In this document: positions 20,735 to 36,054 of the stretch, one piece after another
How positions within the stretch are numbered: the first letter of the stretch is position 1
Layout of the letters: the number at the start of each line of letters is the position of its first letter
Source: a virus
Lineage: Duplodnaviria > Caudoviricetes
IMG/VR virus record: IMGVR_UViG_3300044580_000329
Coordinates: 1-54,062 of that record
Reading direction: 5' to 3' (one strand)
DNA: 54,062 nucleotides
Translations under genes and position numbers: made by a program
The notes under the pieces: model-generated
Told to the model about the DNA's origin: nothing
What the model saw: the letters and a program-made list of their open reading frames with translations, nothing else
The model's database searches: none

Positions 20735-20751
20735 TTTGAGACAATTAAAGA

Positions 20752-20784: not shown

Positions 20785-20910
20785 GAAAAAAGTACTCAAA
20801 AATTTTTTTATTTCAAAAATATGTGTTATAATTGCAACAGATTTAGTAAATTTTTGCACTAAATTAAAACTTTTTCAAACGAGTTCATAATATATAGAAA
20901 AAATCAACTG

Positions 20911-21018
20911 ATGCAGAAACAAGGTTTAAATATAGTCGTAGCGAATTGGGTGGCCAATGATGATAACAAAGGTCGTAGAGGAGTTATGCGTCCCGTTGAG
21001 GATATAATTGATTGGTGA
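20911..21018 (+). CDS. Putative attenuator leader peptide 1 (35 aa)
   Basis: MQKQGLNIVVANWVANDDNKGRRGVMRPVEDIIDW; lies between promoter motifs and a terminator ahead of the tRNA array and contains the antiterminator strand. Confidence 0.75.
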   Translation: MQKQGLNIVVANWVANDDNKGRRGVMRPVEDIIDW

Positions 21019-21075
21019 AACAACAACAATTAAGAATAAATCAACGGGAACTCTAAAGGTTCCCGTTTTTATTTT
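20991..21075 (+). promoter_or_regulatory. Antiterminator/terminator pair of attenuator 1
   Basis: Terminator AACGGGAAC(21043-51)/GTTCCCGTT(21059-67) plus T-run; TCCCGTTGA(20991-99) is the exact complement of TCAACGGGA(21041-49). Confidence 0.8.
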
Positions 21076-21102
21076 AAGTTCTTTGACATATTGCTTTCTT
21101 TC

Positions 21103-21173
21103 GCGGGTGTAGCACAGTGGTAGTGCAGGAGCCTTCCAAGCTTCTGACGTGAGTTCGATTCTCATCACCCGCT
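21103..21173 (+). tRNA. tRNA-Gly(TCC)
   Basis: GCGGGTG/CACCCGC, GGAGC-ctTCCaa-GCTTC. Confidence 0.92.
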
Positions 21174-21174
21174 C

Positions 21175-21290
21175 TAATTGCTGTAGTGACAGGAATGGGT
21201 TACTTCGTGCTAAATGGTTTAGCAATTGTCTTTTAAACAATGGTTGCGGTTCAAATCCGCCTGTTACCCTCCAAATTTTCTCAGTAATTA
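21175..21290 (+). ncRNA. Y-RNA-like RNA 5 enclosing tRNA-Lys-like D, anticodon and T arms
   Basis: TAATTGCTG/CAGTAATTA ends with TAGTGA, GTTACTTCG and TTTTCT motifs; inside are GCTA..TAGC, ATTGT-ctTTTaa-ACAAT and GCGG-ttcaaat-CCGC. Confidence 0.72.
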
Positions 21291-21293
21291 AAT

Positions 21294-21370
21294 GGTCTCT
21301 GGAGCTGCTAGGAGTGGCTGCCGGCCTGTCACGCCGGAACAACAGGAGGGTTCGAATCCCTTAGGGACCG
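21294..21370 (+). tRNA. tRNA-Asp(GTC), atypical D-arm
   Basis: GGTCTCT/AGGGACC, CCGGC-ctGTCac-GCCGG, G discriminator. Confidence 0.85.
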
Positions 21371-21465
21371 CTAACGCAGATAGCTGTTTAACAGCAAAAA
21401 CAGCTCTACAAAAAGTCGACTCATTGTAGAGAAGATACCGGTTAAAGTCCGCTAATGCTCCAATA

Positions 21466-21504
21466 AGTCCTACGCCGGGTGGACGGACTATAATAAAACT
21501 CGGC
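21466..21504 (+). ncRNA. Small H-type pseudoknot element
   Basis: S1 GTCC/GGAC, S2 GCCGGGT/ACTCGGC, A-rich linker ATAATAAA. Confidence 0.4.
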
Positions 21505-21509
21505 ATTTT

Positions 21510-21593
21510 AGGTCGTTAGCCTCAATGGTAAGGCACCGGTCTCCAAAACCGAGGTTGGAGTATTCCATGGGAGTTCGAATCTTCCACGACCTG
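21510..21593 (+). tRNA. tRNA-Trp(CCA) with long variable arm
   Basis: AGGTCGT/ACGACCT, CGGT-ctCCAaa-ACCG, extra hairpin TGGA-gtat-TCCA. Confidence 0.85.
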
Positions 21594-21656
21594 CTAATCA
21601 AAACTTTATATTAGAGTTCAAAAACTTTTATCCTGCTTGAATATATAAAATAAAAA

Positions 21657-22577
21657 ATGGATAGCGTTTGTATAATTTGTGGTTCGAAAAATTTTAAAAT
21701 TAAAAGTAATAGATTTTGTTCTCAAGAATGTATTCATCAGTATGGAACACAAAAGATGAATGAAAAAATTAAATGTAGAATTTGCGATAAAGAAATTTCT
21801 AAAGCCAATTATAATAAGCATCTAAAAACTCATGAAATTAAAAAACATCACTATTTTTGTGAAAATTGTGGCAAAGAAGTTTATGAAAAATATGGTTCAG
21901 GGAGATTTTGCTCTTCTAAATGTGCCAGAGGATTTAGTACAAAAAATAAAAGAGAGCAGATAAATAAAAAAGTTAGTGAAAAAATAAAACAAAAAATATC
22001 TAACGGAGAAAAAATAGGTTTTTGTACTTCAGGTAGATTAGTTAAATTAGAAAATAAAGTTTGCCCTATTTGTGGAAATAATTTTAAAGCTGATGAAAAA
22101 TTTGGTAAAAAAACTTGTTCAAAAGAATGTTCTCATAAGGCTACTGCTTTAAACAATAAAGGAAAAAAACACAATATCAAAGATACTTCAAGAATGGGAG
22201 GTCTTAGACCTGGGGGTGGAAAGTCAAAACAAATTTCTTATACAAATTGGTTAGGATATAAAATGTCTTTGAATAAAGAAGAAATTGAAGTAGCTAAAGT
22301 ACTTGATGAAAAAAAATTAAACTGGAATAGAAATAGAAAAGGTTTTCCATATTTAACACGGGACGGTAAACAAAGAAAATATTACCCGGATTTTGTAATA
22401 AATGATAATGAATACATTGAATATAAAGGGTGGGTAACTTCCGAAATGGAATGGAAAATGGAAAATGCAAAAGCAAATAATAATCTTAATTTAATTATAA
22501 TAGTTGGAAACGATAAAAGATATAAAGAGTTTGGAATATCTTTGCACGAATATTTAGATAGTAAATTTTTTCTATAG
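21657..22577 (+). CDS. Putative homing endonuclease: Cys-rich zinc fingers plus PD-(D/E)xK nuclease domain
   Basis: Repeated CxxC...RFCS..C motifs; YYPDF...IEYKG; inserted in the tRNA array behind ATATATAAAA. Confidence 0.8.
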   Translation: MDSVCIICGSKNFKIKSNRFCSQECIHQYGTQKMNEKIKCRICDKEISKANYNKHLKTHEIKKHHYFCENCGKEVYEKYGSGRFCSSKCARGFSTKNKREQINKKVSEKIKQKISNGEKIGFCTSGRLVKLENKVCPICGNNFKADEKFGKKTCSKECSHKATALNNKGKKHNIKDTSRMGGLRPGGGKSKQISYTNWLGYKMSLNKEEIEVAKVLDEKKLNWNRNRKGFPYLTRDGKQRKYYPDFVINDNEYIEYKGWVTSEMEWKMENAKANNNLNLIIIVGNDKRYKEFGISLHEYLDSKFFL

Positions 22578-22639
22578 GAGACTCTTAAAATGGAAAGATA
22601 CCGCGCATAGAGACGGCGGTTAATGCCTATAGGAAATTC

Positions 22640-22713
22640 GGGCTGTTAGCTCAGTTGCCTAGAGCGCCTGATTTGCACCCAGGAGGTCAAGGGTTGGAAT
22701 CCCTTACGGTCCA
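22640..22713 (+). tRNA. tRNA-Ala(TGC)
   Basis: GGGCTGT/ACGGTCC with G3:U70, loop ttTGCac. Confidence 0.88.
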
Positions 22714-22773
22714 CTACGACAGACTGTTAGATTTTCATAGTAACCGTGACGACGGGTTTCATAGAAAATTAAC

Positions 22774-22847
22774 GCCTTCGTGGCGCAATTGCGTAGCGCT
22801 ACTCCCTCTTAAGGAGAAGGTTAAGGGTTCGAGTCCCTTCGGAGGCA
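22774..22847 (+). tRNA. tRNA-Lys(CTT)
   Basis: GCCTTCG/CGGAGGC, CTCC-ctCTTaa-GGAG. Confidence 0.88.
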
Positions 22848-22855
22848 CAAATGCC

Positions 22856-22962
22856 GGATGATACACTGTTTTATCGCAGTGCCGGCTCCAAGGGCGATAC
22901 GTGGTGGTTGGTTGCCGGCCCCACCCAGTTGGTTATCATGGGTTCGATCCCCATATCGTCCA
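22856..22962 (+). ncRNA. Aberrant tRNA-like RNA with canonical T-arm and two alternative acceptor 5' strands
   Basis: ATGGG-ttcgatc-CCCAT-ATCGTCC-A; both GGATGAT (22856) and GGGCGAT (22892) can pair with ATCGTCC; no 7-nt anticodon loop. Confidence 0.55.
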
Positions 22963-22967
22963 CAAAT

Positions 22968-23044
22968 AGTGCGTTAGTTCAGTTGGTTAGAATATCAGAC
23001 TGTCACTCTGAGGGTCGCGAGTTCGAGTCTCGTACGCACTGCCA
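22968..23044 (+). tRNA. tRNA-Asp(GTC)
   Basis: AGTGCGT/ACGCACT, TCAGA-ctGTCac-TCTGA, encoded CCA. Confidence 0.93.
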
Positions 23045-23048
23045 TAGA

Positions 23049-23153
23049 ATCTGTAGTAAGAATAGAGTTTCATCGTGGTAAACATTGGTTCGAATCCAAT
23101 CGTGGCCGCCAAAAACTGGCTATGAAAAAAAGCTCTTTTCAATTTTCTCAGAT
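23049..23153 (+). ncRNA. Y-RNA-like RNA 6 with T-arm and loop-closed acceptor-like stem (YrlA-like)
   Basis: ATCTG-TAGTAA-GAATAGAG-TTTCATCG ... ATTGG-ttcgaat-CCAAT-CGTGGCC..GGCTATG ... CTCTTTTC-AATTTTCT-CAGAT. Confidence 0.75.
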
Positions 23154-23193
23154 CAATTTTTTTGCTTATATTAGCTTATTAAATTAGCCACAT

Positions 23194-23265
23194 GGGGATA
23201 TAGCTCAGAGGTAGAGCGCTTGCCTGTTAAGCAAAGGGTCGGGATTTCGAAATTCTCTATCCCCG
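23194..23265 (+). tRNA. tRNA-Asn(GTT)
   Basis: GGGGATA/TATCCCC, TTGC-ctGTTaa-GCAA. Confidence 0.87.
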
Positions 23266-23279
23266 CAAATTTTCAAACA

Positions 23280-23534
23280 ATGGATGAATTATTACAAATT
23301 ATCGAAAGATTAAAGGAAGAAAACGAAGAGTTGAAATCAAAATTGATTGATCTTACGTTTGAAATGAATTACAGCAAAGAGGTAGAGTTAATTGAATTTC
23401 TTCGTTCAATTTATTCAAGCATTCAGGAGGAAATGAACTTCAAAACCAGAAGTAAATTATCAAAGAGCCAAATGCTCTATAGTTTGAAAAAGAATATTGA
23501 AGAATTTGCTAAGAATAACAAAATATCATTATGA
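23280..23534 (+). CDS. Hypothetical coiled-coil protein
   Basis: Start moved to MDELLQ, downstream of tRNA-Asn. Confidence 0.6.
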   Translation: MDELLQIIERLKEENEELKSKLIDLTFEMNYSKEVELIEFLRSIYSSIQEEMNFKTRSKLSKSQMLYSLKKNIEEFAKNNKISL

Positions 23535-23914
23535 AACTTTACCGATACAGCGTTACATCTTGGCATCACGGAGCAATTCCTCATGTTGAATTACAAGATT
23601 ACGAAGTTATACGAGAAACAAAGCAAGGATATTGGGTACACCAGTATTTTGGAAGTGAGAAAAAATGGGTATCTAAAGATGGATTAAGAAGATTTGCATT
23701 TCCAACCAAGTACCAGGCGATGCAGAACTTTATAAAACGAACAGAAAAACGAGTAAAATATTTAGAAATAGATTTACAGGCTTGTCAATTAGGTTTGGAA
23801 TCAGCAAAAAGAATACAGGAAGAAATTTCAGAAGATGACGATGTGATAACATTACATCATATTTTAAAACTGCGGGGTGGGGCAGCGGTAGCTCGAGAGG
23901 CTCATAACCTCTAG
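23531..23914 (+). CDS. Hypothetical phage protein
   Basis: YEVIRETKQGYWV...KKWV....RRFAFPT..A; the 3' end overlaps tRNA-fMet. Confidence 0.65.
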   Translation: MKLYRYSVTSWHHGAIPHVELQDYEVIRETKQGYWVHQYFGSEKKWVSKDGLRRFAFPTKYQAMQNFIKRTEKRVKYLEIDLQACQLGLESAKRIQEEISEDDDVITLHHILKLRGGAAVAREAHNL

Positions 23915-23942
23915 GTCGGGGGTTCGAATCCCTCCTCCGCTA
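23871..23942 (+). tRNA. tRNA-fMet(CAT), initiator-like
   Basis: TGCGGGG/CTCCGCT with 1:72 mismatch, AGAGG-ctCATaa-CCTCT. Confidence 0.85.
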
Positions 23943-23947
23943 CAAAT

Positions 23948-24078
23948 GGCGAGAAAGTTTAGAAAAAATGACTCTTATTGGCTTTCTCATTTCGATGTAG
24001 TAATTATGGGGGTTTCATCGGAAAAACGTCAAGCTCATAACTTGAAGATCATAGGTTCAAATCCTATTCTCGCCGCCA
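23948..24078 (+). ncRNA. tRNA-Met(CAT)-like RNA with a circularly permuted Y-RNA module in the D-loop (Y-like RNA 7)
   Basis: GGCGAGA/TCTCGCC-G-CCA, D-stem GTTT/AAAC, TCAAG-ctCATaa-CTTGA, ATAGG-ttcaaat-CCTAT; the 63-nt D-loop contains TTTCT-CAT-ttcg-ATG-TAGTAA...GTTTCATCG. Confidence 0.78.
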
Positions 24079-24080
24079 TT

Positions 24081-24153
24081 GACCTCGTAACTCAGTTGGT
24101 AGAGTACAACACTTTTAATGTTGGAGTCGAGAGTTCGAGTCTCTCCGGGGTCA
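24081..24153 (+). tRNA. tRNA-Lys(TTT)
   Basis: GACCTCG/CGGGGTC, CAACA-ctTTTaa-TGTTG. Confidence 0.93.
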
Positions 24154-24158
24154 CAAAC

Positions 24159-24240
24159 GCTCTTATCTTACTTAAAAAAGGAAAGATACCGGCATTAGTT
24201 TTTAAGGCCGGAGATATGGGTTCGAATCCCATTAGGAGCT
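24159..24240 (+). ncRNA. tRNA-like RNA with a 13-nt anticodon loop
   Basis: GCTCTTA/TAGGAGC, CCGGC-attagtttttaag-GCCGG, ATGGG-ttcgaat-CCCAT. Confidence 0.65.
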
Positions 24241-24249
24241 CTAAAATTT

Positions 24250-24322
<73 letters not shown>

Positions 24323-24400
24323 CACTGGATGCCTATGCCGAGGGAGGTTTGTTCCCTGATTTGAGGGCTATTATCAAAGTGCGGGCATGAAATCCTTTAA

Positions 24401-24478
24401 GGAAGATTAGCTCAGTTGGTTCAGAGCATTTGCCTTACAAGCAAGGGGTCGTGGGTTCGAATCCCTCATCTTCCACCA
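24401..24478 (+). tRNA. tRNA-Val(TAC)
   Basis: GGAAGAT/ATCTTCC, TTGC-ctTACaa-GCAA, encoded CCA. Confidence 0.94.
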
Positions 24479-24529
24479 TATGAAAGGAATGAGCTTTCCG
24501 ATTAGACAACAAATGAACAAGCATGATTG

Positions 24530-24797
24530 GCAATTTTGTGAAGTAGAAAGAGGCTTGCATCCAACGCAAAAACCAGTTAAATTGTGTGAATATTTTATTA
24601 AAACATACACAAACGAAAATGAATTAATTTTAGATAATTGTTTTGGAAGCGGAAGTACATTTATAGCGTGCATAAATACAAATCGCAATTTTATAGGTTT
24701 TGAACTGAATCAAAAATATTATAATATTGCAAAAAACAGGATAAATCAACATATTATAGACAATAATTTGCAAGATAAATATAAGTTAATTGCATAA
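24530..24797 (+). pseudogene. C-terminal fragment of an N6/N4 DNA methyltransferase
   Basis: HPTQKPV...LILDNCFGSGST...FIGFEL, fused in frame to the duplicated C39 start. Confidence 0.8.
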
Positions 24798-24817
24798 TTT
24801 TTGAATAAAACTGCGAT

Positions 24818-25591
24818 TTGATTGAAAATATTAATATAAAAGTGAGGAATTATATGGAACATATAAAAATAAATAATAGTTTATACATAAATGCAAATTG
24901 TTTATTTATAATGCAAAAAATGATTCAAAATAATGAAATGGTTGATTGTATAATTGTTGACCCACCTTATGGTATCAATCATCATAGCAATAGAAGAAAA
25001 GATAAAAAAAATTCTATTACTAAAAAAGGTATAATAAATGACAACAATAACCAAGAATTACTAAAACAAGCAATTGATTTATCATATCAGTGTTTAAAAA
25101 ATAATTCGCATATTTACTGGTTTACAAGATGGGATAAATTAGAAGAACACCTTCCTATGTTAAGAAATTATTATAATATTAAGAATATTCTTATATGGGA
25201 TAAAGGCAATCATGGTAGTGGTGATTTGACAGGTGCTTATGGTAATAGATATGAATGTATTATATATGGAATGAAAGGTAGACGTGATTTAAATAAGATT
25301 AATGGAAAACAAAGACACGATGATATACTTACATATTCAAAAGTACCTGCACAAAAATTAATTCATCCACATCAAAAACCTATAGGTTTATTAGAATTTT
25401 TAATACTAAAATCCACTAATGAAGGAGATATAATTCTTGATATGTTTGCAGGAGTAGGTAGTACATTAGTTGCAGCGATAAAAAATAAAAGAGAATGTAT
25501 TGCTATTGAATTAGATAGTAATATATATAAAAAAGGCAAGGAAAGACTTAATAATGAAGGTTTGAAATTACATATATATAAAGTTAGTTAA
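24818..25591 (+). CDS. N6-adenine/N4-cytosine DNA methyltransferase (beta class)
   Basis: DPPY precedes HPHQKP and DMFAGVGST; the true start is probably a slightly later Met. Confidence 0.92.
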   Translation: MIENINIKVRNYMEHIKINNSLYINANCLFIMQKMIQNNEMVDCIIVDPPYGINHHSNRRKDKKNSITKKGIINDNNNQELLKQAIDLSYQCLKNNSHIYWFTRWDKLEEHLPMLRNYYNIKNILIWDKGNHGSGDLTGAYGNRYECIIYGMKGRRDLNKINGKQRHDDILTYSKVPAQKLIHPHQKPIGLLEFLILKSTNEGDIILDMFAGVGSTLVAAIKNKRECIAIELDSNIYKKGKERLNNEGLKLHIYKVS

Positions 25592-25641
25592 TGCATAATA
25601 TTAATATAAAAGTGTTATTTGATTTAAAAAGGAGTGATTGT

Positions 25642-25986
25642 GTGAAAAGTCCAATTAAATGGGTAGGTGGAAAATCTAAGTTAGCAAGAATTATTTTACC
25701 TATGTTTCCCAAGCATGATGGTTATGTGGAAGTATTTGGTGGCAGTGCTTATATGTTATTTTCTAAAGAACCAAGTAAATGGGAAGTTTTAAATGATTAT
25801 GATAGCAATCTAATGAATTTTTGGTCAGTGATAAAAAATGCACCAGACCAATTTATAGATAGTTTTAATTATATTTTAGTAAGTAGAGAAACTTTTAATA
25901 TATATAAACAAAAATACAAGAATAATGATTTTAATGATAATATAGAAAAAGCACATGTATTTTATTATTTAGTTAAAGCTGGATTT
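25642..25986 (+). pseudogene. N-terminal fragment of a Dam-family adenine methyltransferase
   Basis: SPIKWVGGKSKLA, YVEVFGGSA, EVLND; truncated at the second 44-bp repeat, with no DPPY. Confidence 0.8.
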
Positions 25987-25989
25987 GGA

Positions 25990-26486
25990 ATGAGCTTTCC
26001 GATTAGACAACAAATGAACAAGCATGATTGTTCGGTGTGTGTCATTTGGTGCATACTCCGACATGCTGAAATTGATATTAATTATTTAGATTTATATCGA
26101 TTTATTAGTCCTCCTACAAAACCGGATGAAGGGATTTCTGGAGATCAAATAATAAAAATACTTAAGAAATTCGGAATTAAAACTATTTCTGAAAGAAGCA
26201 ACATTTCAAAACTAAGATTTTACACAACCAAGTGGCCTGTAATAGTTAGTATACAACATAAAAAGAAAGGAATGTTGAATGGAAACATATAACAGAATTC
26301 GGACATTATGTAATTGTCTTAGAAGTAAATGATAAAAAGGTGAGATTCATGGATCCGAATTATGGAAAGATAAGGTCTTTAAATATTAAAGATTTTAAAG
26401 ACAGATGGCATGATGGAGATGAAAATGAACTTTGTAAATACCCAGCAATCATATGTATGGTAAATGAATCGAAATCTGTATTTTAA
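25990..26486 (+). CDS. C39-family cysteine peptidase, frameshifted near 26265
   Basis: RQQMNKHDC, PVIV, then in the shifted frame FGHYVIV...VRFMDPNYG...F...W; the shift falls in an A-run. Confidence 0.75.
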
Positions 26487-26778
26487 GGATGGTGTTCTTT
26501 TTGCTAAGGGTTACGAAAGAGTGGTTCATGGAGGGTGAGGAGATTATATAGAGTTAACTAAAGATCAAATAGTTGTAGAACTTAGATCAAAATTTAAACA
26601 GTCACTTCCAGAAGCCATTTCTGACGAGCCCTTTTATTATTACTGGTTAGTTCCAATTGGAAGAGATGAAAAGATTTATTGACAGTGTAGAACCGTAAAT
26701 TATGCGGATTACAAAATAGGATATTATTATATAAGCCCTAAGTTAATTATACCATTTGATAATACAGAATTATTTTAA
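26464..26778 (+). pseudogene. 104-codon ORF with two in-frame TGA codons
   Basis: MNRNLYFKDGVLFAKGYERVVHGG*GDYIEL...KIY*QCRTVNYADYKIGYYYISP; TGA at 26536 and 26680; fills an otherwise empty gap. Confidence 0.65.
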
Positions 26779-26790
26779 TAAATAAGATAT

Positions 26791-27150
26791 ATGGAAGACA
26801 AAGATTTAGATATTAGAATCACTCGGGGGTCAGGCCCAGGAGGACAACATAAGAACAAGGTGGAAACTTGCGTTATTATAACTCATATTCCAACTGGTTT
26901 ACAAGAGAAGTGTCAAGAAACCCGTAGTAAAATTCAGAATCTTGAACTTGCTAAAGAAAGAATTAAAGCGAAAGTGGAGAAACTACAAGAGCAAAAAATT
27001 CAAGAAGCAAAAAATGAGCGTAGACGTGAATTAATTAAAAACCAGAAAGTAGTTCGTACATATAACTTTGTAAGAAATGAAGTTTATGATCATCGAACAA
27101 AAACAAAACACGATCTAAAAAAGTTTATGAGAGGAGAAATTGATCTATGA
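26791..27150 (+). CDS. GGQ peptide-chain-release-factor-like protein lacking the codon-recognition domain
   Basis: RGSGPGGQHKNKVET...THIPTG...RS..QN, then RF1-like VRTYNF...VYDHR. Confidence 0.9.
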   Translation: MEDKDLDIRITRGSGPGGQHKNKVETCVIITHIPTGLQEKCQETRSKIQNLELAKERIKAKVEKLQEQKIQEAKNERRRELIKNQKVVRTYNFVRNEVYDHRTKTKHDLKKFMRGEIDL

Positions 27151-27315
27151 AACTTACACTCGAAAAAGATTTAAAAGTTGCTGTTGAAGTAAATGGTGCT
27201 AAATTCATTGGATCTGAAGAAGGAGTTTTATATCAAAGCATTACAGATACTGAAATTTTACTTTATATTAAGTCAGAACCTGAAGGAAAGGAAATAAAAA
27301 TTAAAATAGCAAAAG

Positions 27316-27513
27316 ATGTTAATAATCAAGGTGCATGAGGGAGAAAATATTGACAAAGCCCTTAAGAGATTTAAAAGAAAATTTAACATGATTGGAATTG
27401 CCAGTGAATTGCGTGAAAGAGAACAATTCATAAAGCCTTCTGTAAAAAAGAGACAAGTAAAACAGAAAGCTAAGTACAAACAATACATGCAAAGGAAAGA
27501 AGAAATGGAATAG
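27316..27513 (+). CDS. rpsU: Ribosomal protein bS21
   Basis: MLIIKVHEGENIDKALKRFKRKF.....ELRERE.F.KPSVKKR. Confidence 0.93.
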   Translation: MLIIKVHEGENIDKALKRFKRKFNMIGIASELREREQFIKPSVKKRQVKQKAKYKQYMQRKEEME

Positions 27514-27519
27514 CATAAT

Positions 27520-27595
27520 GGTTCGGTAGCTCAATGGATAGAGCAACAGCCTTCTAAGCTGTCGGTTGAGCGTTCGAGTCGCTCCCGAATCACCA
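27520..27595 (+). tRNA. tRNA-Arg(TCT)
   Basis: GGTTCGG/CCGAATC, ACAGC-ctTCTaa-GCTGT, CCA. Confidence 0.93.
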
Positions 27596-27611
27596 ATTTA
27601 AATTTTCATTT

Positions 27612-28084
27612 ATGACAGCACTTTATATTATAATGTTAACCATATTTGTTGGTTATATTTCATGGATATGGGCTAGATACCATCAATTTCCCATAGTTAT
27701 TATTCACTTCCCAACAACCTAAAATTGATATTTACATTATGGTGTTGGGGGTATGCTTTTCCAGCAATAATTGTTGCATCAACACCCTTAATGTTTTTCG
27801 CTGGTGCGGGAATTTGTTTTGTTGGTGCGGCAGCCGCTTATCGAGAAAAAATGACTGAGACTGTTCATATAATTGGAGCAGCAGCAGCCATTCTTTTTAG
27901 TCAATTATCTATCATAATAGATTTTCATATGTGGTATATCACTGTTGCTTTTGCAGCAATTGCTTTACCACTTGCCTTAACAAGATTTTCAAAGAAAGGA
28001 ATATGTCCAAATAGAACTTGGTGGGTTGAAATTTTAGCATTTATAACAATAGCTTTAGTATTAGGAATAAAATTATGGTCGTAA
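27612..28084 (+). CDS. Multi-pass membrane protein, frame break near 27680
   Basis: ATG at 27612 (MTALYIIML...), continuing as PSISHSYYSLP...FTLWCW...RTWWVEI in another frame. Confidence 0.55.
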
Positions 28085-28350
28085 AGTTAGTATCATATGA
28101 TGGTTCATATCCGAACTTATGTAGCGGTAAGTTAGTTATTTCTGTTGATGAAAAGGAATGGGTTTTTCCATCACACTGTTTATCAAGCGGTGGTAGCGTA
28201 TGGTTTGACGATCATTGGAGTGAACATGTTGAAGATGGTCCTTGGGGTGTAGGTGAATGGCCTGAAGGTTTTCCTGAAGAAGCTAAGGAAGAAGCTTTAA
28301 GCGTTATTAACGAAGGTATTTCTTGGGGTTGTTGTGGAGGTTGTGTATGA
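28075..28350 (+). CDS. Conserved phage hypothetical protein
   Basis: YDGSYPNLCSG...SGG...GCCGGCV C-terminus. Confidence 0.65.
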   Translation: MVVKLVSYDGSYPNLCSGKLVISVDEKEWVFPSHCLSSGGSVWFDDHWSEHVEDGPWGVGEWPEGFPEEAKEEALSVINEGISWGCCGGCV

Positions 28351-28592
28351 CAGCACAAGAATACATAGATGCTTGGGATATAAGATGGGAAAATCATTTT
28401 AGATACTCTGTTTTAGTTGAAGAATTAAGTAATTTACAAGGAATTGATGTTGTTGCCCAGATGGAATCAGTTTTAATAGCAGAAATGAATAAAGAGGTCG
28501 ATAAACATATAAAAAACGATATACAGAGATTATTTAATATCAGTATACAACAAGCCGAAAAAATTAACACAATAGTAGATGGAATCTTATAA
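28347..28592 (+). CDS. Small protein resembling an internal segment of major capsid protein
   Basis: LQGIDVVAQMESVLIAEMNKEVDKHI versus QWGIDVIAMVENAGINEISQSINKHI in this window's capsid protein; ATGA-coupled start. Confidence 0.55.
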   Translation: MTAQEYIDAWDIRWENHFRYSVLVEELSNLQGIDVVAQMESVLIAEMNKEVDKHIKNDIQRLFNISIQQAEKINTIVDGIL

Positions 28593-29211
28593 TTCTATAC
28601 CAAAGTGGGGTGAAGATTATTTTGGCAAATATGTATTTGCATTTGACAAAATAGATGGTTCTAATTTCAGAGCGGAATGGAATAGAAAATTATCTAAAAA
28701 GTCCCGCTTTACACATGGGTTTGGTAAATTTGGAACTAGACAAGATAGGATAAAATTTATTAAAGACCCATATTGCGAAGGCATTGAAATATTTAAAAAC
28801 AAGTTTTCAGAAAAACTAGATAAAATATTTTTAGAAAACAAGGCATTTAGAAACATTGATAACATTACTGTATTTGGAGAATTTTATGGGTCTAAAAGCT
28901 TTGCTGGAATGCATGATTGGGGTGAAAAACATGATGTCAAAATTTTTGATGTGTTTTTAGACCGAAAAGGAATTTTGCCCCCATCTGATTTTATAAAAAT
29001 ATTTGAAGGTTTAGATACATGCAAACTTGTATTTGCTGGAATTTTTTCTCAAAGTTATTTAGAGTTAATTGAAAAAAATATATTAAATTTACAAGAAGGA
29101 GTTGTTTGTAAAGGAGTTGAAAACCAAGAGGTGTTCATGTTCAAAATAAAAACACTGAAATGGCTTCAGAAGGTAAGAGATTTATACGGTAATGAAAGAA
29201 CTGATTATTAG
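28579..29211 (+). CDS. RNA ligase-like nucleotidyltransferase
   Basis: Motif I FDKIDGSN, VFGEFYG, FDV, EGVV, FKIK. Confidence 0.82.
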   Translation: MESYNSIPKWGEDYFGKYVFAFDKIDGSNFRAEWNRKLSKKSRFTHGFGKFGTRQDRIKFIKDPYCEGIEIFKNKFSEKLDKIFLENKAFRNIDNITVFGEFYGSKSFAGMHDWGEKHDVKIFDVFLDRKGILPPSDFIKIFEGLDTCKLVFAGIFSQSYLELIEKNILNLQEGVVCKGVENQEVFMFKIKTLKWLQKVRDLYGNERTDY

Positions 29212-29458
29212 ATCAACAACTACAGTTGATGAACTTGTTCTTCAATGGGAAGCAAAACAAGAGTTACGATTTATTTTTGATGGGTTTCCTCAATTAAATA
29301 TACTTCGTCCAACTGCATCATTGATTGCAAATGATTTAGTTTCAGTACAACCAATGGCAGCTCCAACAGGCATATTACATTATGTTGACTATGTTTATAA
29401 TGGAACCCCTAATGAAAGGCAACATGATTGCGGAATTGAAAAAACTTTAAGTGAATGA
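29192..29458 (+). CDS. Small protein containing a gp23 Gol-region-like segment
   Basis: LIANDLVSVQPMAAPTGILHYVDYVY versus TVGFDIVNVVPMPGPTGVISYLDYVY in this window's capsid protein. Confidence 0.7.
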   Translation: MKELIIRSTTTVDELVLQWEAKQELRFIFDGFPQLNILRPTASLIANDLVSVQPMAAPTGILHYVDYVYNGTPNERQHDCGIEKTLSE

Positions 29459-29640
29459 AGAACTATAAATCTAAAAGAAAAGATTTAAGAGATCGAAAAA
29501 GAGAGATAATGGAAGTTGGATTTGACTCTTCAAAAGATAGAAAAAGAGTTGTTGAATCCTTTAAAAGAGAATCTCGTTCATTGAAAAGAAGTGAAAAGAA
29601 TTCTTTCAAGAATTCTTGGAGAAATGAATATGGTATTTAA

Positions 29641-29717
29641 GGCCTTATAGCTCAATTGGATAGAGCACCTGACTACGAATCAGGAGGTTATGGGTTCGAC
29701 TCCCGTTAAGGTCACCA
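29641..29717 (+). tRNA. tRNA-Arg(ACG)
   Basis: GGCCTTA/TAAGGTC, CCTGA-ctACGaa-TCAGG, CCA. Confidence 0.94.
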
Positions 29718-29719
29718 CA

Positions 29720-29793
29720 GCCTTCATAGCTCAATTGGATAGAGCATCTGACTTCGGATCAGATGGTTGAGGGTTCGAATCCTTCTGAGGGCG
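29720..29793 (+). tRNA. tRNA-Arg(TCG)
   Basis: GCCTTCA/TGAGGGC, TCTGA-ctTCGga-TCAGA. Confidence 0.93.
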
Positions 29794-30662
29794 CTTAATA
29801 TATAATAAGATGAGTGATAAACTTGAAAATTTGTTGGCTATTTTGTTCTGTGTCATATTTGCAATTAGTGTAGGAATATATTATTTTGTTAGTATGACTA
29901 TTGGGGGATGGATGGCCGGTTTGACGATTTGTTTGGGGATTTCATATATGTTAGCTCAATCATTTCGTTATGCTTGGATAAGTATCAAGCAACTATCAGA
30001 CCAAATTGATAGTTTAAAAAAATAAACAATATGGACGACGAGGGTGATAGTAAAAAAAGAAAAATTAGCAACTGTGTTTCTAATGTTAGGAACTTTCTTC
30101 AATCCATTAGGATACGATGCGCTATTGAAGGCTTTACTGGATTTGACAGGCAATTATTGGCTTTCAATTTCCGTTTTTTACCTTGTATCAGCTTGTTTCT
30201 TTACGTTATACTTTATATTTTCTAAAACAAATCCACTTGATTTATTTAGAAAAAAGAAAAAAATTATCCACTCATAAAAATATTCATAAAAATATTTTGA
30301 AAATTTGGAGTAAGTGGTGGATGGATGCCATGTAAAATGCCATTGAGCGGTGATAAAATAAGTTCAATTGGCGGTGCTCTTACTTACTACACACTTCCTG
30401 CAGACCAAGAAGGCTATTCTTATTATGCATCAGTGGGTGTTGCTTCTCAGGGCTACCGATATGAATTAACAAGTTCATGGGGATATGGCGAAGAAGCAAC
30501 TTTACCTATGACAATCATAATGGTTGGTTACAAATATGACAGCGGAGGAGTTAACTTTAAACTTGGTGGAGGTTATGGATGGTGTGAAGAAGCTGGTGCA
30601 TGGACATTTGAAGCAACATTGGGATTTACACTTTTCGGAAACTAATTTTTAAACATAAATTA

Positions 30663-31082: not shown

Positions 31083-31097
31083 TTTTTATTTGATGAT

Positions 31098-31129
31098 AAA
31101 AAAGGGGCTCAAATTTGAGCCCCTTTTTT
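31098..31129. terminator. Bidirectional intrinsic terminator
   Basis: AAAAAGGGGCTC-aaattt-GAGCCCCTTTTTT. Confidence 0.85.
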
Positions 31130-31160
31130 ATTTGGATATATAATAAAATTATTTCTATGG

Positions 31161-32111
31161 ATGAAGTTTTATACATATGAAAAAGATACTGTTTCATATA
31201 AACGGTATAAATTTTTTAAATTAAAATTCATCATTCCATTTTTTCTTTTTCAATCAACCATAGCACTTATTATTTTTATTTTAATTGCAACGTTTTATAC
31301 AACTCCTAAAGAAAAAATATTAAAACAAGATGTTGCTTATTTACTATATGAATTTGATAATGTAAATAAAAGAATGATTGAAACTGAAGCTACATTAGAA
31401 CAAATTAAAGAAAATGATAGTATAATCTATCAGTCCATATTAGATGTTAATTCAATAACAAAAAAAGAATTAGATGTTTATTATGAGGATTTAGAAGGAA
31501 ATAAATACAGTCAAATGGTTGAATTAACAAATCAAAAACTATCTGAATTAAGCGCAAGATTAGCAAAAGAATTATATCGTTTAGATGGAATGGTTAAAAC
31601 TGCTTATTCACATCAAGAAATGCTAACTCATTTGCCTGCTATTCAGCCTATTGATAATAAAGATTTAAAAAGGACTGCGTCAGGATGGGGTATGAGAATT
31701 CATCCAGTTTATAACATTCAAAAATTCCACTATGGATTGGACTTTACAGCACCTACAGGAACTTCTATTTATTCAACTGGGGACGGGGTAGTTGAATATG
31801 CAATTCCTTATACTAGCAAAGATTCCCAAGGCTATGGAAATGTGATGATTATCAATCATGGATATGGATATAGAACCTTATATGCCCATATGAATAAATT
31901 TAAAGCAAAGATTGGACAGCAAGTTAAAAGAGGAGAAATAATTGGATATGTTGGAAATACAGGAATATCTACAGGTCCTCATTTACATTATGAAGTTATA
32001 AAGGATGGGCAAAAAGTAAATCCTATCTATTATCTATTTAATAGTTTGACTCCTGAAGAATATCAAAAAATAATCGAGATATCGAATTCAATAACTAAAT
32101 CTTATGATTAA
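31161..32111 (+). CDS. M23 family metallopeptidase
   Basis: N-terminal TM plus coiled coil; HYGLD, YAHM, STGPHLHYEV. Confidence 0.93.
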   Translation: MKFYTYEKDTVSYKRYKFFKLKFIIPFFLFQSTIALIIFILIATFYTTPKEKILKQDVAYLLYEFDNVNKRMIETEATLEQIKENDSIIYQSILDVNSITKKELDVYYEDLEGNKYSQMVELTNQKLSELSARLAKELYRLDGMVKTAYSHQEMLTHLPAIQPIDNKDLKRTASGWGMRIHPVYNIQKFHYGLDFTAPTGTSIYSTGDGVVEYAIPYTSKDSQGYGNVMIINHGYGYRTLYAHMNKFKAKIGQQVKRGEIIGYVGNTGISTGPHLHYEVIKDGQKVNPIYYLFNSLTPEEYQKIIEISNSITKSYD

Positions 32112-32113
32112 AA

Positions 32114-32527: not shown

Positions 32528-33006
32528 AAAAACTTTTAATAATATTATCTCTCATATTATTTTCATGTGGCCCTTCTCCAGAGCAAAAAATAATAAAATC
32601 CTTTGAAGAGGGCAGACATCGTAATCATTTTAAAATAAATAATGTATCTATTTATGACACTATTTATTATGTAGATATTATTGATTCACTTGAATTTTAC
32701 GAAAATAAAGTTCGTTTAATTCGAACACAAATAGATGGTCTTAGGGGATTTAGAGATAGTGTTTTTAAATTAAATTATCCAGATTCGATTCGAAGATCAA
32801 TTCTTCAAAAGAGATTTGATTTGGACAGGGAATTACAAAGAAATTTACATCATGCTTCAAGCCAACAAATGAATAGATATACATTTTATAATATGAATGA
32901 TAGTATTTGTGGTTATCTAGTCAAAATTTATACTCCTCGAGATACATTTGATTTTGTTGTTACATCAAAATATGCAATAGTTTGTCCAACTTTTATGTTT
33001 TATTAA
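32524..33006 (+). CDS. Putative lipoprotein
   Basis: MKKLLIILSLILFSC. Confidence 0.6.
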   Translation: MKKLLIILSLILFSCGPSPEQKIIKSFEEGRHRNHFKINNVSIYDTIYYVDIIDSLEFYENKVRLIRTQIDGLRGFRDSVFKLNYPDSIRRSILQKRFDLDRELQRNLHHASSQQMNRYTFYNMNDSICGYLVKIYTPRDTFDFVVTSKYAIVCPTFMFY

Positions 33007-33007
33007 A

Positions 33008-33601
33008 ATGAATCCATTTATTGTTTATAAAGAAATATTAGATAAATATCTGCATTCTGATTCTTCTTTAAAATTGCAACAAGCTTGGAGTGAACCTCAC
33101 AGAAAATACCATACAATTGAACATTTAATAGATATTTTAAAATATATTGAAAAATATCGGTTCAATCTACCAAATGAATTTTACGATGCGTTAGTGTTAG
33201 CTGCATTTTTTCATGATTGCTATTACAATCCCCGAAATTCCACAAACAATGAAGATGAATCTATACGCAGATTCTTAATGGAATTTAGATCAAAGGGAGA
33301 TAATAATAACATACGTAATGCTGTGATGGCAATGATTGAAGCAACTAAATATCGAAAACGCCCATCACAATATTTAATTCGCTTATTTTGGGAAGCCGAT
33401 AATAATCAATTTTATAATGGTTATGATACTCTTTTGAAAAATGAACATTTAATTCGACAAGAATTTAATCATCTTCCAAAATCAGTTTACAAAGCTAATA
33501 GAATAAAATTCTTAAAAACTAATATAGGGCTCTTTAATGCTAATGTCGATAACGATCTAAAAAAATTAATAAAATATATCGAGGATATATATAAAAATTA
33601 A
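33008..33601 (+). CDS. HD-superfamily metal-dependent hydrolase
   Basis: EPHRKYHTIEH, AAFFHDCYY, NEDES, EAD, IRQEF. Confidence 0.85.
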   Translation: MNPFIVYKEILDKYLHSDSSLKLQQAWSEPHRKYHTIEHLIDILKYIEKYRFNLPNEFYDALVLAAFFHDCYYNPRNSTNNEDESIRRFLMEFRSKGDNNNIRNAVMAMIEATKYRKRPSQYLIRLFWEADNNQFYNGYDTLLKNEHLIRQEFNHLPKSVYKANRIKFLKTNIGLFNANVDNDLKKLIKYIEDIYKN

Positions 33602-33609
33602 ATATTCAG

Positions 33610-33978
33610 ATGGAAGATGTTAAGTTAGTTGCAGAATCATTGCAGGAATTCGAACAAATAGATGAAGGAATAGTAGATTTCTTTGCGGGTGCTAGAACAG
33701 CAGTTTCAAGGGCTCTTAAAAATCCTGAAAATGAAAAAATAGTAAATAACGCTATTAAAACTGCATTCGCTAAACAATTTGGAAGTCAGCCAAAAGTAAA
33801 GGAAGCCATATTAGGATGGAAAATTGAAAAGAAAATTGAATTACTAAAACTAGCGGCTAAAAAATTAGAAGATAAAAAAATTGCTTTCTTAGCAATAACT
33901 AAGAAACCAGATGGAACTCTAACAGTTGTAGGAACCCAAGCAGCTGGTGGGGCATTGTCTGCTGTAACAGGAGCATAA
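33610..33978 (+). CDS. Hypothetical late protein, possible internal head protein
   Basis: Preceded by ATATATAAAA; N-terminal LVAESLQEF..IDE resembles gp21-type cleavage sites. Confidence 0.5.
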   Translation: MEDVKLVAESLQEFEQIDEGIVDFFAGARTAVSRALKNPENEKIVNNAIKTAFAKQFGSQPKVKEAILGWKIEKKIELLKLAAKKLEDKKIAFLAITKKPDGTLTVVGTQAAGGALSAVTGA

Positions 33979-34043
33979 ATTTTTGTTAAAAAATTTTCCC
34001 AGGTCAAATATTTTTGTTATATTAGCACTAAATTAGTACACAC

Positions 34044-34424
34044 ATGATCAGTATTGAATTTAGGGAACACATATTTAACGGTCTAAAATTTAAAAAATCT
34101 AATACATATTCCGATGATTATTTTGACCGTTTGAAGAATGAAGGCTCGCATTATAGCCAAATGAAATATTTGGATGCTGTCAATGATCAGCTAAACGAAC
34201 AAATTCACATAAAGTTATCATATTCAATAATTTCTAAGTTATTAGCTATCATATTTATAGTTATTGCTTTTATTTCATTTAAATTTTTCTGGCCATCAAT
34301 AATTTTAGCTTTTATTGCAATATTCTTTCAAATAATGTTTAATGTTTATCAACGAAGAGCGCAGGATTTATTTATGGGGAAGGAAATGAGTAGGGATTTA
34401 GTTGAATTAATTTTCTGTAAATAA
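34044..34424 (+). CDS. Hypothetical membrane protein
   Basis: Two TM segments; promoter-like TATATTAG upstream. Confidence 0.6.
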   Translation: MISIEFREHIFNGLKFKKSNTYSDDYFDRLKNEGSHYSQMKYLDAVNDQLNEQIHIKLSYSIISKLLAIIFIVIAFISFKFFWPSIILAFIAIFFQIMFNVYQRRAQDLFMGKEMSRDLVELIFCK

Positions 34425-34496
34425 ATCTCAAAAAATTTTTTAGATTCAAAAACTTTTTATATTTTTGCGTATATATAATAAAAGAATTTTTATAGA

Positions 34497-34571
34497 ATGA
34501 AGCGTCATAGCATACATATCAGTTCGATTAGCTCAACCGAAAGTTGTCTGTGGCCTTCTTATGTAAATTGA
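34497..34571 (+). CDS. Putative attenuator leader peptide 2 (24 aa)
   Basis: MKRHSIHISSISSTESCLWPSYVN; directly precedes a terminator and the Thr/Ser/Ile/His tRNAs. Confidence 0.8.
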   Translation: MKRHSIHISSISSTESCLWPSYVN

Positions 34572-34628
34572 AGTACTAACTTTAAAAATTAAGGGAAGGC
34601 CTAAAAAGACCTTCCCTTTTTTGTTTTA
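34552..34628 (+). promoter_or_regulatory. Antiterminator/terminator pair of attenuator 2
   Basis: Terminator AAGGGAAGG(34591-99)/CCTTCCCTT(34610-18) plus T-run; GGCCTTCTT(34552-60) pairs with GGGAAGGCC(34593-601). Confidence 0.8.
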
Positions 34629-34629
34629 T

Positions 34630-34705
34630 GCTCTTTTAGCTCAGTAGGTAGAGTACTTCCTTGGTAAGGAAGAGGTCTTGGGTTCGACCCCCAAAAAGAG
34701 CTCCA
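34630..34705 (+). tRNA. tRNA-Thr(GGT)
   Basis: GCTCTTT/AAAGAGC, CTTCC-ttGGTaa-GGAAG, CCA. Confidence 0.93.
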
Positions 34706-34722
34706 AAAATGTTCTTTGAAAT

Positions 34723-34809
34723 GGAGGTACGTATTTGGTGTGCTACGCTGCCTTGAAAGCAGTGAGGTCGATGAGAGTCGGCGTGTGGGTTCGAGTCCCT
34801 CTGCCTCCG
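34723..34809 (+). tRNA. tRNA-Ser(TGA), atypical D-arm
   Basis: GGAGGTA/TGCCTCC-G, GCTGC-ctTGAaa-GCAGT, long variable arm GTCGAT..GTCGGC. Confidence 0.82.
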
Positions 34810-34817
34810 CACAATAT

Positions 34818-34894
34818 TGGGATGTATCCCCTCTGTCTTATACACAGTAGAAAGGGTAGTTGGTTGCACATGGGTTCGATCCCCATCTTCCCAA
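34818..34894 (+). tRNA. Non-canonical tRNA-Ile(TAT)-like RNA without a normal D-arm
   Basis: TGGGATG/CTTCCCA-A, CTGT-ctTATac-ACAG enclosed by TATCC/GGGTA, canonical T-arm ATGGG-ttcgatc-CCCAT. Confidence 0.65.
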
Positions 34895-34932
34895 CAAATT
34901 TTGGTTAGCACGCATAGATATATAAAATAAAA

Positions 34933-35595
34933 ATGAACTGCAAATTTTGTAATAAGGAAATTAATAATAAAGGAGGATTGGTAAAACATGAAAACGGATG
35001 TTCTTTAAACCCTGAAAAAATATCATATAGGTCTAATTTTATAGAGTATAATCAAAAAGTAAGGACGGGGGAGATACAAGGAAAAAATCAATATATTACA
35101 GCTAAAGAACGAGGAGAAAAATGGGTGATGCCCAAAGAGGCAATTGAAAAAAATAGACAAAAACATTTAGGAAAACCTCTTAGTAAAGAACACAAAGAAA
35201 TATTATCATTTAAAAGATCTAAGGTAATAGAAGAATTAGGAAAGGGCGGATTTAAACATATCAAATGGTATAAAATTAAAAATATATTCGAAGAAGAATT
35301 TATAGTAAGGGGAAGTTGGGAACTCAAAGTTGCAAAGATCTTAAATAAAGAAAATATTATATGGAGAAGAAAAATTTACTTGAAATATAAAGATAACGAA
35401 GGAGTCATTAGAACATATACGCCAGATTTTTATTTGGTAGAAAGAGATCTTTATATAGAAGTTAAAGGATATTTTAGCATAAAAGATAGGAAAAAAATGA
35501 AAAATGTCTTAAGAGATAATAATATAAATTTAATTATTATTGATAAAAAAATTATAAATGACGAAGAAAAGATATTAAAAATGATAAATTCCTGA
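34933..35595 (+). CDS. Putative homing endonuclease, PD-(D/E)xK type
   Basis: N-terminal CKFC..H...C, RGSWE, YTPDFY....YIEVKG; located in the tRNA array behind ATATATAAAA. Confidence 0.82.
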   Translation: MNCKFCNKEINNKGGLVKHENGCSLNPEKISYRSNFIEYNQKVRTGEIQGKNQYITAKERGEKWVMPKEAIEKNRQKHLGKPLSKEHKEILSFKRSKVIEELGKGGFKHIKWYKIKNIFEEEFIVRGSWELKVAKILNKENIIWRRKIYLKYKDNEGVIRTYTPDFYLVERDLYIEVKGYFSIKDRKKMKNVLRDNNINLIIIDKKIINDEEKILKMINS

Positions 35596-35673
35596 CGTGG
35601 ATGAGTGGTTTAGTCACCTGGCTGATATCCAGGGCTCTCAAAAGCGACGTAGGTTCGAATCCTGCCGTCAGGA
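35591..35673 (+). tRNA. tRNA-Ile(GAT) with long variable arm
   Basis: CCTGACG/CGTCAGG-A, CCTGG-ctGATat-CCAGG, extra GCT-ctcaaa-AGC hairpin. Confidence 0.82.
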
Positions 35674-35679
35674 CAAAAT

Positions 35680-35770
35680 GGAGAGTTGCCAGAGTGGTCT
35701 ATCGGGGCAGCCTGCTAAGCTGTTGAACGCGATATGTGTTCCGTGAGTTCGAACCTCACACTCTCCGCCA
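35680..35770 (+). tRNA. tRNA-Ser(GCT)
   Basis: GGAGAGT/ACTCTCC-G-CCA, loop ctGCTaa, long variable arm. Confidence 0.93.
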
Positions 35771-35831
35771 CTGAAAACGATGCTAAAGTTATCCCTGTTT
35801 TAAGTAGCGGAAGTTTTAGGGATGACAAACT

Positions 35832-35921
35832 GGAGAGTTGGCAGAGTTGGTCTATTGCGGCAGCCTGGAAAGCTGTGATCGAGAGATTGGTCCGTGGGTT
35901 CGAATCCCGCACTCTCCGCCA
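35832..35921 (+). tRNA. tRNA-Ser(GGA)
   Basis: GGAGAGT/ACTCTCC-G-CCA, loop ctGGAaa. Confidence 0.93.
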
Positions 35922-35924
35922 TAC

Positions 35925-36000
35925 GGTGGTATTAGTGTTTAACGGTTAGCACGCAAGTCTGTGGAACTTGTAGTGAAGGGTTCGAATCCCACATACCACC
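35925..36000 (+). tRNA. tRNA-His(GTG)
   Basis: G-1:C73, GTGGTAT/ATACCAC, CAAGT-ctGTGga-ACTTG. Confidence 0.92.
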
Positions 36001-36054
36001 AAGTGGGCAAAATTGCCCCTTCTAGACTGGATATATACATAAAACAATATATCC

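Follow-up and report, generated by a model that had tools for sequence, protein, structure and literature searches.

Organisation of the locus

The DNA analysed here, referred to as the window, is a stretch of 54,062 nucleotides (nt) that covers positions 1 to 54,062 of the IMG/VR virus record IMGVR_UViG_3300044580_000329. ARAGORN identifies 25 tRNA genes in it, on the + strand only, arranged in arrays 0, 1 and 2. The subject of this report is a short open reading frame (ORF), here called a leader, which together with a terminator stands in front of the tRNA genes. The leaders of arrays 1 and 2 lie within the window, and the features of the two units are as follows.

20751..20784, + strand: intrinsic terminator of the upstream gene for a 376-residue protein (20751-20779 in the terminator scan; free energy, dG, -14.4)
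20800..20905, + strand: inferred promoter region of leader 1, from motifs shared with the regions upstream of leader 2 and upstream of leaders in relatives
20911..21018, + strand: leader ORF 1, beginning with ATG, 35 codons
20990..21000, + strand: antiterminator strand 1, within leader ORF 1, complementary to the 5' arm of terminator 1
21043..21072, + strand: attenuator terminator 1, a 10-pair hairpin (hairpin and T-run called at 21043-21067; dG -13.7)
21081..21092, + strand: conserved 12-base motif between terminator 1 and the first tRNA, from a motif search
21103..29794, + strand: array 1, 14 tRNAs (Gly, Asp, Trp, Ala, Lys, Asn, Met, Val, Arg) with embedded ORFs
34430..34490, + strand: inferred promoter region of leader 2, from motifs
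34497..34571, + strand: leader ORF 2, beginning with ATG, 24 codons
34551..34561, + strand: antiterminator strand 2, within leader ORF 2, complementary to the 5' arm of terminator 2
34591..34624, + strand: attenuator terminator 2 (hairpin and T-run called at 34591-34618; dG -14.3)
34630..36001, + strand: array 2, tRNA-Thr, Ser, Ile, Ser, Ser and His, interrupted by one endonuclease-like ORF

The first tRNA behind terminator 1 is a tRNA-Gly starting at 21103, and the first behind terminator 2 is the tRNA-Thr starting at 34630. The terminator at 20751..20784 would isolate the leader 1 unit from transcription arriving from upstream. An earlier interpretation made from the DNA letters without database searches, called here the sequence-only reading, had described the order promoter, leader ORF, terminator before both arrays, with an antiterminator strand in the 3' part of the ORF. 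The ORFs, terminators and antiterminator strands are present as described, and the promoters are inferred from motifs.

Leaders and terminators in the window

There are 21 sites in the whole window where a hairpin is followed by a T-run on the + strand (dG <= -9). Only terminators 1 and 2 lie at most 40 nt upstream of a tRNA and behind a short ORF. In both leaders the antiterminator strand is located 10-18 nt upstream of the end of the ORF, and its pairing with the 5' arm of the terminator is strong: the duplex has a dG of -15.5 for leader 1, which is equalled by none of 300 shuffled sequences, and of -15.6 for leader 2, which is equalled by one of 300. In minimum free energy (MFE) folds both terminators are formed (z scores of -2.29 for leader 1 and -3.93 for leader 2). 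Antiterminator 1 is sequestered by the 5' end of its own ORF, and antiterminator 2 is paired with codons 2-6 of leader 2. This is the arrangement that would be expected when no ribosome is present.

The codons of the two leaders are clearly divided according to the tRNAs that follow. Leader 1 names all nine of the nine amino acids for which array 1 has a tRNA; 26 of its 34 non-start residues are cognate to array 1 tRNAs, with a longest uninterrupted run of 19. Leader 2 has 13 cognate residues out of 23, with a longest run of 11: codons 4-14 are exclusively His, Ser, Ile or Thr, and its codons can be read by all six of the six array 2 anticodons. When random windows from the phage's own long ORFs are used as the null, the cognate counts have probabilities of 0.0003 (leader 1) and 0.002 (leader 2), and the runs 5e-5 each, so that the split by array proposed in the sequence-only reading holds. 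Each leader gives a z score of 3.5 to 4.0 on its own array, and a negative score on the other two.

Conservation in related phages

The window encodes a major capsid protein of the gp23 type (Pfam Gp23, E 4e-38) and a prohead protease (Peptidase_S77). In a tblastn comparison of the capsid protein, the Prevotella Lak megaphages come closest among named phages, at 47% identity; the relatives in IMG/VR include a 405-kb record, bounded by direct terminal repeats, whose capsid protein is 71% identical. The capsid type and this kinship therefore point to a huge, T4-like phage related to the Lak phages. The host is presumably a member of the Bacteroidota, to judge from an SprB-repeat protein encoded in the window, from the relatives of the phage, and from motifs that resemble promoters of this phylum. 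Words of the tRNA region are present in runs from anaerobic digesters, sludge and wastewater.

A nucleotide search with both leader regions against 50,697 phage records returned tRNA matches only. A gapped DNA pattern made from leader 1 has 11 matching stretches among viral contigs, of which seven are true relatives; the other four were rejected as chance matches without tRNAs. Relatives were collected by way of capsid homology, from 94% down to about 30% identity, together with tRNA maps. In this way 32 leaders with the same layout were obtained from 15 related huge-phage records, which include Prevotella Lak megaphages and metagenomic phages of 460-735 kb. The leaders were chosen by eye from one to four candidate ORFs per upstream region, a bias that is small in comparison with the effect sizes given below. 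One block (L081 of record W06), for which there are only 71 nt of upstream sequence, was left out, and Tenacibaculum phage PTm1 (29% capsid identity), in which no tRNA matches were found, falls outside the survey.

In close relatives (88-100% protein identity) both leaders are nearly unchanged. Relatives with 66-82% capsid identity have homologues of leaders 1 and 2, each followed by a terminator and then tRNAs. The same layout is found in Lak-A1, Lak-B1 and LR756500.1, and in three metagenomic phages of 630-735 kb whose capsid identity is only about 30%. All 32 elements are intact ORFs from ATG to stop, 18-42 codons in length, so that the leaders are conserved as ORFs over the whole of this range. 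All 32 are also provided with a hairpin and T-run, with dG values from -8.5 to -20.4, and between lineages the sequence of the antiterminator strand changes together with that of the terminator arm.

It is of particular use that the tRNAs are not partitioned into arrays in the same way in all the phages, and that the composition of the leader follows each partition. Examples are an array of His, Pro, Arg, Gly, Cys and Met; one of Ala, Leu, Pro, Tyr, Gln, Gly and Thr; one of Leu isoacceptors only, whose leader is Leu-rich; and one of Arg, Thr, Val, Ala, Gly, Phe and Pro, where all seven of the seven are named by the leader. The possibility that the leader is a functional small protein was considered and rejected, on the grounds that there is no constraint on its sequence and that its composition tracks the arrays.

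Coupling of leader codons to array tRNAs

Over the 32 leaders, 592 of 937 non-start residues are cognate to the tRNAs of the array downstream, against 329 expected. Of the 211 amino acids represented in the arrays, 206 are present in the array's own leader. The corresponding coverage is 150.5 ± 5.7 for random ORF windows (maximum 168 in 3000) and 140.2 ± 7.0 when the leaders are dealt to other arrays (maximum 163). In phages with two or more leaders, the top score is given by the own array for 28 of 28 leaders. When seven leaders, each standing for a distinct class, are paired with their arrays in all 5040 permutations, the true pairing alone ranks first. The permutation check suggested in the sequence-only reading thus finds the coupling in relatives as well.

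Individual amino acids behave in the same way. Among the first 22 leaders, His codons are present if and only if the array holds a tRNA-His (nine with both, 13 with neither), and in two phages where tRNA-His is found in array 1, the His codons are in leader 1 and there are none in leader 2. For Trp in the 22 leaders, nine have both codon and tRNA, two the codon only, none the tRNA only, and 11 neither. Phe codons are found in the sensing stretch of leader 1 only in the phage whose array 1 begins with tRNA-Phe.

The coupling extends to the isoacceptors. Of 305 distinct array anticodons, 258 find at least one codon in their own leader that they can read; synonymous redrawing of the codons according to phage usage gives 234.6 ± 5.2, and none of 3000 redraws reaches 258. 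As had been noted for the two window leaders, many synonymous codons are sampled: there are 483 distinct synonymous codons in the leaders, compared with 431.6 ± 8.2 from codon usage, and none of 2000 redraws reaches 483. The isoacceptor match and the excess of synonymous codons suggest that the leaders sense tRNA species, and not merely amino acids.

The signal is confined to the reading frame. The cognate share is 63% in frame and falls to 28-33% when the reverse complement or either of the other frames is read; coverage is 206 of 211 in frame and 138-141 of 211 out of frame or on the opposite strand. There are no stop codons in frame, compared with 64-107 in the other frames and on the opposite strand. 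These results bear on the idea that the leader RNA might sense tRNAs directly, by codon-anticodon pairing without a ribosome, in the manner of a T-box. The match between leader codons and array anticodons is what such a mechanism would give, but the signal is strictly in frame and every one of the leaders is an intact ORF. A permissive Rfam search with both window leaders found nothing near the gathering score of any family, the T-box and the families for His, Thr, Trp, Leu, Phe and other operon leaders included, and up to 14 different amino acids are called for, which is beyond any single specifier loop. We consider direct sensing to be very improbable.

A second and simpler idea is that these are short ORFs that merely happen to precede terminators. 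Short ORFs are indeed frequent in AT-rich DNA, but the permutation, swap and frame controls and the conservation in 15 phage records make this explanation scarcely credible, and as far as statistics reach it is refuted.

Position of the antiterminator strand

The complementarity between the antiterminator strand and the terminator arm is matched by at most two of 300 shuffles in 17 of the 32 leaders, and by at most 15 of 300 in 24. Cognate codons are most frequent ahead of the strand, which is also the pattern of classical attenuators. Of those codons at which a stalled ribosome leaves the antiterminator strand free, 423 of 574 (74%) are cognate; of those further downstream, 169 of 363 (47%) (Fisher p 7e-17). 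In window leader 2 the cognate run stops at codon 14, which is the last codon that leaves the strand free. The geometry of the antiterminator is in keeping with classical attenuation, as had been described for the window.

The coupling by itself indicates that translation of the codons matters, and does not fix the direction of the switch. One alternative accepts that the leader is translated and is coupled to the array, but supposes a different route or the reverse sign. Leader translation might, for instance, be required for read-through, transcript stability or processing of the precursor tRNAs, in a feed-forward device whereby a good supply raises the output of tRNAs. In keeping with this, three of the 32 antiterminator strands end 26-30 nt before the end of the ORF, out of reach of a ribosome at the stop codon. 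The other 29 strands, however, lie between 23 nt upstream of the ORF end and 13 nt beyond it, and would therefore be occluded by a ribosome finishing the ORF. The upstream location of the cognate codons also speaks against the feed-forward proposal, as do the window MFE folds, where without a ribosome the terminators are formed and the strands sequestered. We regard it as unlikely.

Array 0 and its leader

The first array of the window is incomplete, as is seen in a close relative where it extends further upstream.

732..6144, + strand: array 0, downstream part, tRNA-Leu, Met, Leu, Pro and Gln with interspersed ORFs; its leader is upstream of the window

The sequence-only reading had predicted a third leader for these Leu/Met/Pro/Gln tRNAs, upstream of the window. 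It exists in two metagenome contigs of the same lineage (L067 and L068), which reach the start of array 0. This leader is a 32-codon ORF with 22 of 31 residues cognate to its array, and is rich in Leu, Pro, Gln, Tyr, Phe, Glu, Cys and Thr. The array tRNAs in these contigs are Cys first, then Thr, Gln, Pro, Leu, Glu, Tyr, Phe and others. The order is leader ORF, terminator, 12-base motif, an endonuclease-like ORF, and then the tRNAs, and the 5' arm of the terminator matches a strand within the ORF. Analogous third leaders are found in two more distant relatives.

Some further observations concern array 0. In L067 the ORF that splits the third leader from its array (4879-5397) resembles a homing endonuclease. 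Positions 1-730 of the window start within an endonuclease-like ORF, complete in the relative L066, with flanks that are richer in G+C and look structured; an Rfam search of positions 1-740 with E values up to 0.1 gave no family match. A tRNA with a CUA anticodon, of the amber suppressor type, is present in array 0 of relatives (L066, 10513-10585; G007b, 8502-8575; LR500_c, 9181-9249), and ARAGORN finds none in the corresponding part of the window (3664-5601). In Lak phages, TAG reportedly serves as a sense codon (PMC6784885).

Observations that weigh against attenuation

Several observations do not sit easily with the reading of the leaders as attenuators. At the level of codons, five array amino acids are absent from their own leader (Met twice, Arg twice and Thr once), and some residues of the leaders lack a counterpart among the array tRNAs, for example Ile in leader 1 (several phages) and Asn in leader 2 (two phages). 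In eight of the 32 leaders the antiterminator complementarity is no better than in 5% of shuffles. Comparison of five pairs of close relatives shows eight synonymous and 14 non-synonymous codon changes; these are few and not indicative, and while the absence of any sign of selection on the peptide sequence is as expected for a leader, they provide no independent proof of translation. With regard to transcription, 20 of the 24 runs listed contain part of 20750-24500, and six are of record as RNA. Four RNA-library runs, from four studies, cover 21293-22716 and several tRNAs, though as contigs only and with DNA carry-over possible. Among the contigs listed there is no piece over either leader or across a terminator, and they argue neither for nor against transcription of the leaders.

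At least eight tRNA blocks have no leader. These include the array at 9333 in G008, part b of LR756500, two blocks in LR745206, one in LR756502 and two in LR756501. In addition, the 12-base motif between terminator 1 and the first tRNA may act as a binding site, in processing or as a promoter, and in the last case it could bypass the attenuator. Within array 1, which is not compact and contains ORFs, there is at least one promoter-like site, at about 21638, because of which the tRNAs after 21657 are perhaps independent of leader 1. A promoter-like motif, distinct from the host-type consensus, stands before leader 2, before the peptidase M23 gene that starts at 31161, and before two ORFs, at 21657 and 36055.

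Taken further, these last points would mean that the arrays are driven mainly by their own promoters, the 12-base motif and the internal sites, and that the leader with its terminator is a separate small unit, either an insulator or a gene for a small peptide or RNA, which hardly governs the tRNAs. The 12-base motif has 14 matches on the + strand of related sequences (at most one mismatch), nine of which are 7-12 nt upstream of the first tRNA of an array, one of these arrays being leaderless. This fits with such an explanation, as do the promoter-like motifs inside array 1 and the several arrays that lack a leader. It leaves unexplained, however, why the codons, in frame and even at the level of isoacceptors, change with the tRNAs each time these are partitioned anew, and why each ORF contains an antiterminator strand matched to its terminator. 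An additional promoter is, moreover, compatible with an attenuator. Transcription mainly from such promoters appears improbable.

Proposed mechanism

On the basis of these observations the interpretation as attenuation made in the sequence-only reading is supported, and we consider it highly probable that each phage tRNA block sits behind a leader-peptide transcription attenuator that senses tRNA supply. Transcription would begin at a promoter directly upstream of the 17-42-codon leader ORF. When all of the tRNAs called for are plentiful, the ribosome would reach the end of the ORF and cover or melt the antiterminator strand; the terminator hairpin could then form, and RNA polymerase would halt before the tRNA genes. 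When any one of these tRNAs is scarce or uncharged, the ribosome would stall upstream of the antiterminator strand, leaving it to pair with the 5' arm of the terminator, and the polymerase would continue into the array. The supply of each group of tRNAs would in this way come under negative feedback, with isoacceptor resolution. Leader translation and the sign of the switch are deduced from the arrangement of the sequence, and the same is true of the physiological trigger, for which candidates are loss of host tRNAs, a mismatch in codon usage, and defence nucleases. Among the last, host anticodon nucleases may be the trigger.

Other genes and elements in the arrays

The remaining features of the leader 1 unit are listed here.

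26791-27150, + strand: RF-1-domain (ArfB-like) protein, in array 1, from Pfam
27316-27513, + strand: ribosomal protein bS21, in array 1, from Pfam
28579-29211, + strand: RNA ligase, in array 1, from Pfam
31100..31127, + strand: strong terminator, putative end of the leader 1 transcription unit (dG -19.1)

The leader 1 transcription unit probably ends at the terminator at 31100-31127, which marks its furthest extent. In the window, read-through at terminator 1 would also enter the genes for the RF-1-domain protein, bS21 and the RNA ligase, and since these belong to the unit they may be co-induced with the tRNAs.

Array 1 also holds two further tRNA-like elements. At the gathering threshold, Rfam matches in the window are tRNAs alone, with two beyond those of ARAGORN, at 24008-24072 and, as a partial match, at 21209-21260. 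The match of the latter to the tRNA model runs from D arm to T arm; its anticodon loop is of the Lys type (UUU) and its 5' part is aberrant. The spacers between tRNA-Gly, Asp and Trp (21175-21293 and 21372-21509) are more than plain spacer, and odd elements like those of the array 1 spacers occur in the arrays of relatives. Upstream of array 2, three relatives have an intron-like structured RNA. The intron mode of ARAGORN detects a tRNA-Asn with an intron of about 200 nt in L014 (G002; reverse-strand coordinates 10046-10319), and other intron-bearing tRNAs in Lak and LR records.

Endonuclease-like ORFs are found among the tRNAs (21657-22577, 34933-35595 and 36055-36699) and vary between relatives. 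Their weak Pfam matches are to zinc-finger, endonuclease I/TnsA-like and GIY-YIG/NUMOD3-like types. Between the ORFs for proteins of 105 residues (24480-24797) and 233 residues (25591-26292) there is a gene for an N6/N4 DNA methylase. A stretch of 13 residues is common to the start of the first ORF and the middle of the second, and the second joins a D12-methylase N-terminus to a part resembling a C39 peptidase. The region 24480-26292 looks like a methylase gene broken or duplicated by an insertion. A TROVE (Ro-like) protein is encoded at 7206-8888 of the window.

Comparison with known systems

Leader-peptide attenuators are well known for the trp, his, leu and phe operons, and the thr and ilv leaders are multivalent. 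The pheST operon of E. coli, with its pheM leader, provides a case in which a gene of the translation apparatus is under ribosome-mediated attenuation that responds to the charging of one tRNA. T-box riboswitches bind uncharged tRNA directly and have no ORF. What large phages gain from dozens of tRNAs is a matter of debate, and next to nothing is known of how phages regulate their own tRNA genes.

The phage leaders share with the attenuators of biosynthesis operons, the principle of which has been described (PMC1183508), a short ORF with regulatory codons, a terminator before the regulated genes, an exclusive antiterminator formed with the 3' part of the ORF, and, on the proposed mechanism, stalling that reports on charged tRNA. 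They differ in their targets, which are tRNA genes and a few genes for translation and RNA repair, and not enzymes. Where the operon leaders repeat one to three amino acids, the phage leaders list from one to 15, spread over synonymous codons in such a way as to cover most isoacceptors. They are also phage-encoded, with several leaders per genome that have complementary codon sets. In pheST, by contrast, the product is a synthetase, a single amino acid is involved, and the system is on a bacterial chromosome. The resemblance to T-boxes is that tRNA status would choose between terminator and antiterminator upstream of translation-related genes.

A long tRNA array in Anabaena is silent and becomes induced under translational stress (PMC8421152). 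It is likewise an inducible array of tRNA genes, but it is a bacterial element for which no codon-matched leader is described in the main text, where there is no mention of a leader, attenuation, a terminator, an upstream ORF or a short ORF. Lak megaphages have 31-34 tRNAs, some of them with introns, and a suppressor tRNA (PMC6784885); the main text of that paper makes no mention of attenuation, a leader or a terminator, and its supplements may say more. In the full texts searched, leader-peptide attenuation of phage or bacterial tRNA genes was not found, an earlier mention in supplements or subscription papers being possible. What is new here is the class of target, namely tRNA genes, and the logic by which a leader-peptide attenuator calls a roll of many tRNAs.

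Implications

A wider view of the leaders can be proposed, which we hold to be reasonably probable: huge phages with hosts of the Bacteroidota type split their tRNAs into separately sensed regulons, each under a roll-call leader that queries isoacceptors, and in this way could gauge the decoding capacity of the cell in real time and replace exactly those tRNAs that are depleted, whether by host shut-off, by a mismatch in codon usage or by anticodon-nuclease defences. If this is true, these would be the first tRNA genes found under ribosome-mediated attenuation, and a new form of phage counter-defence regulation, with genes for ribosome rescue, bS21 and RNA repair switched on alongside the tRNAs in the window. 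The leaders are in themselves compact natural sensors of the availability of individual tRNAs, and could possibly serve as reporters in synthetic biology. For the biology of the phages, attenuation of this kind would place tRNA genes themselves under translational feedback control, and a single leader could monitor up to about 15 amino acids and most isoacceptors, so that huge phages would operate a modular homeostat of decoding capacity. The purpose of phage tRNAs would become directly testable, since the leaders would list the tRNAs that the phage expects to lose jointly, and phage tRNAs would be linked to defences that target tRNA.

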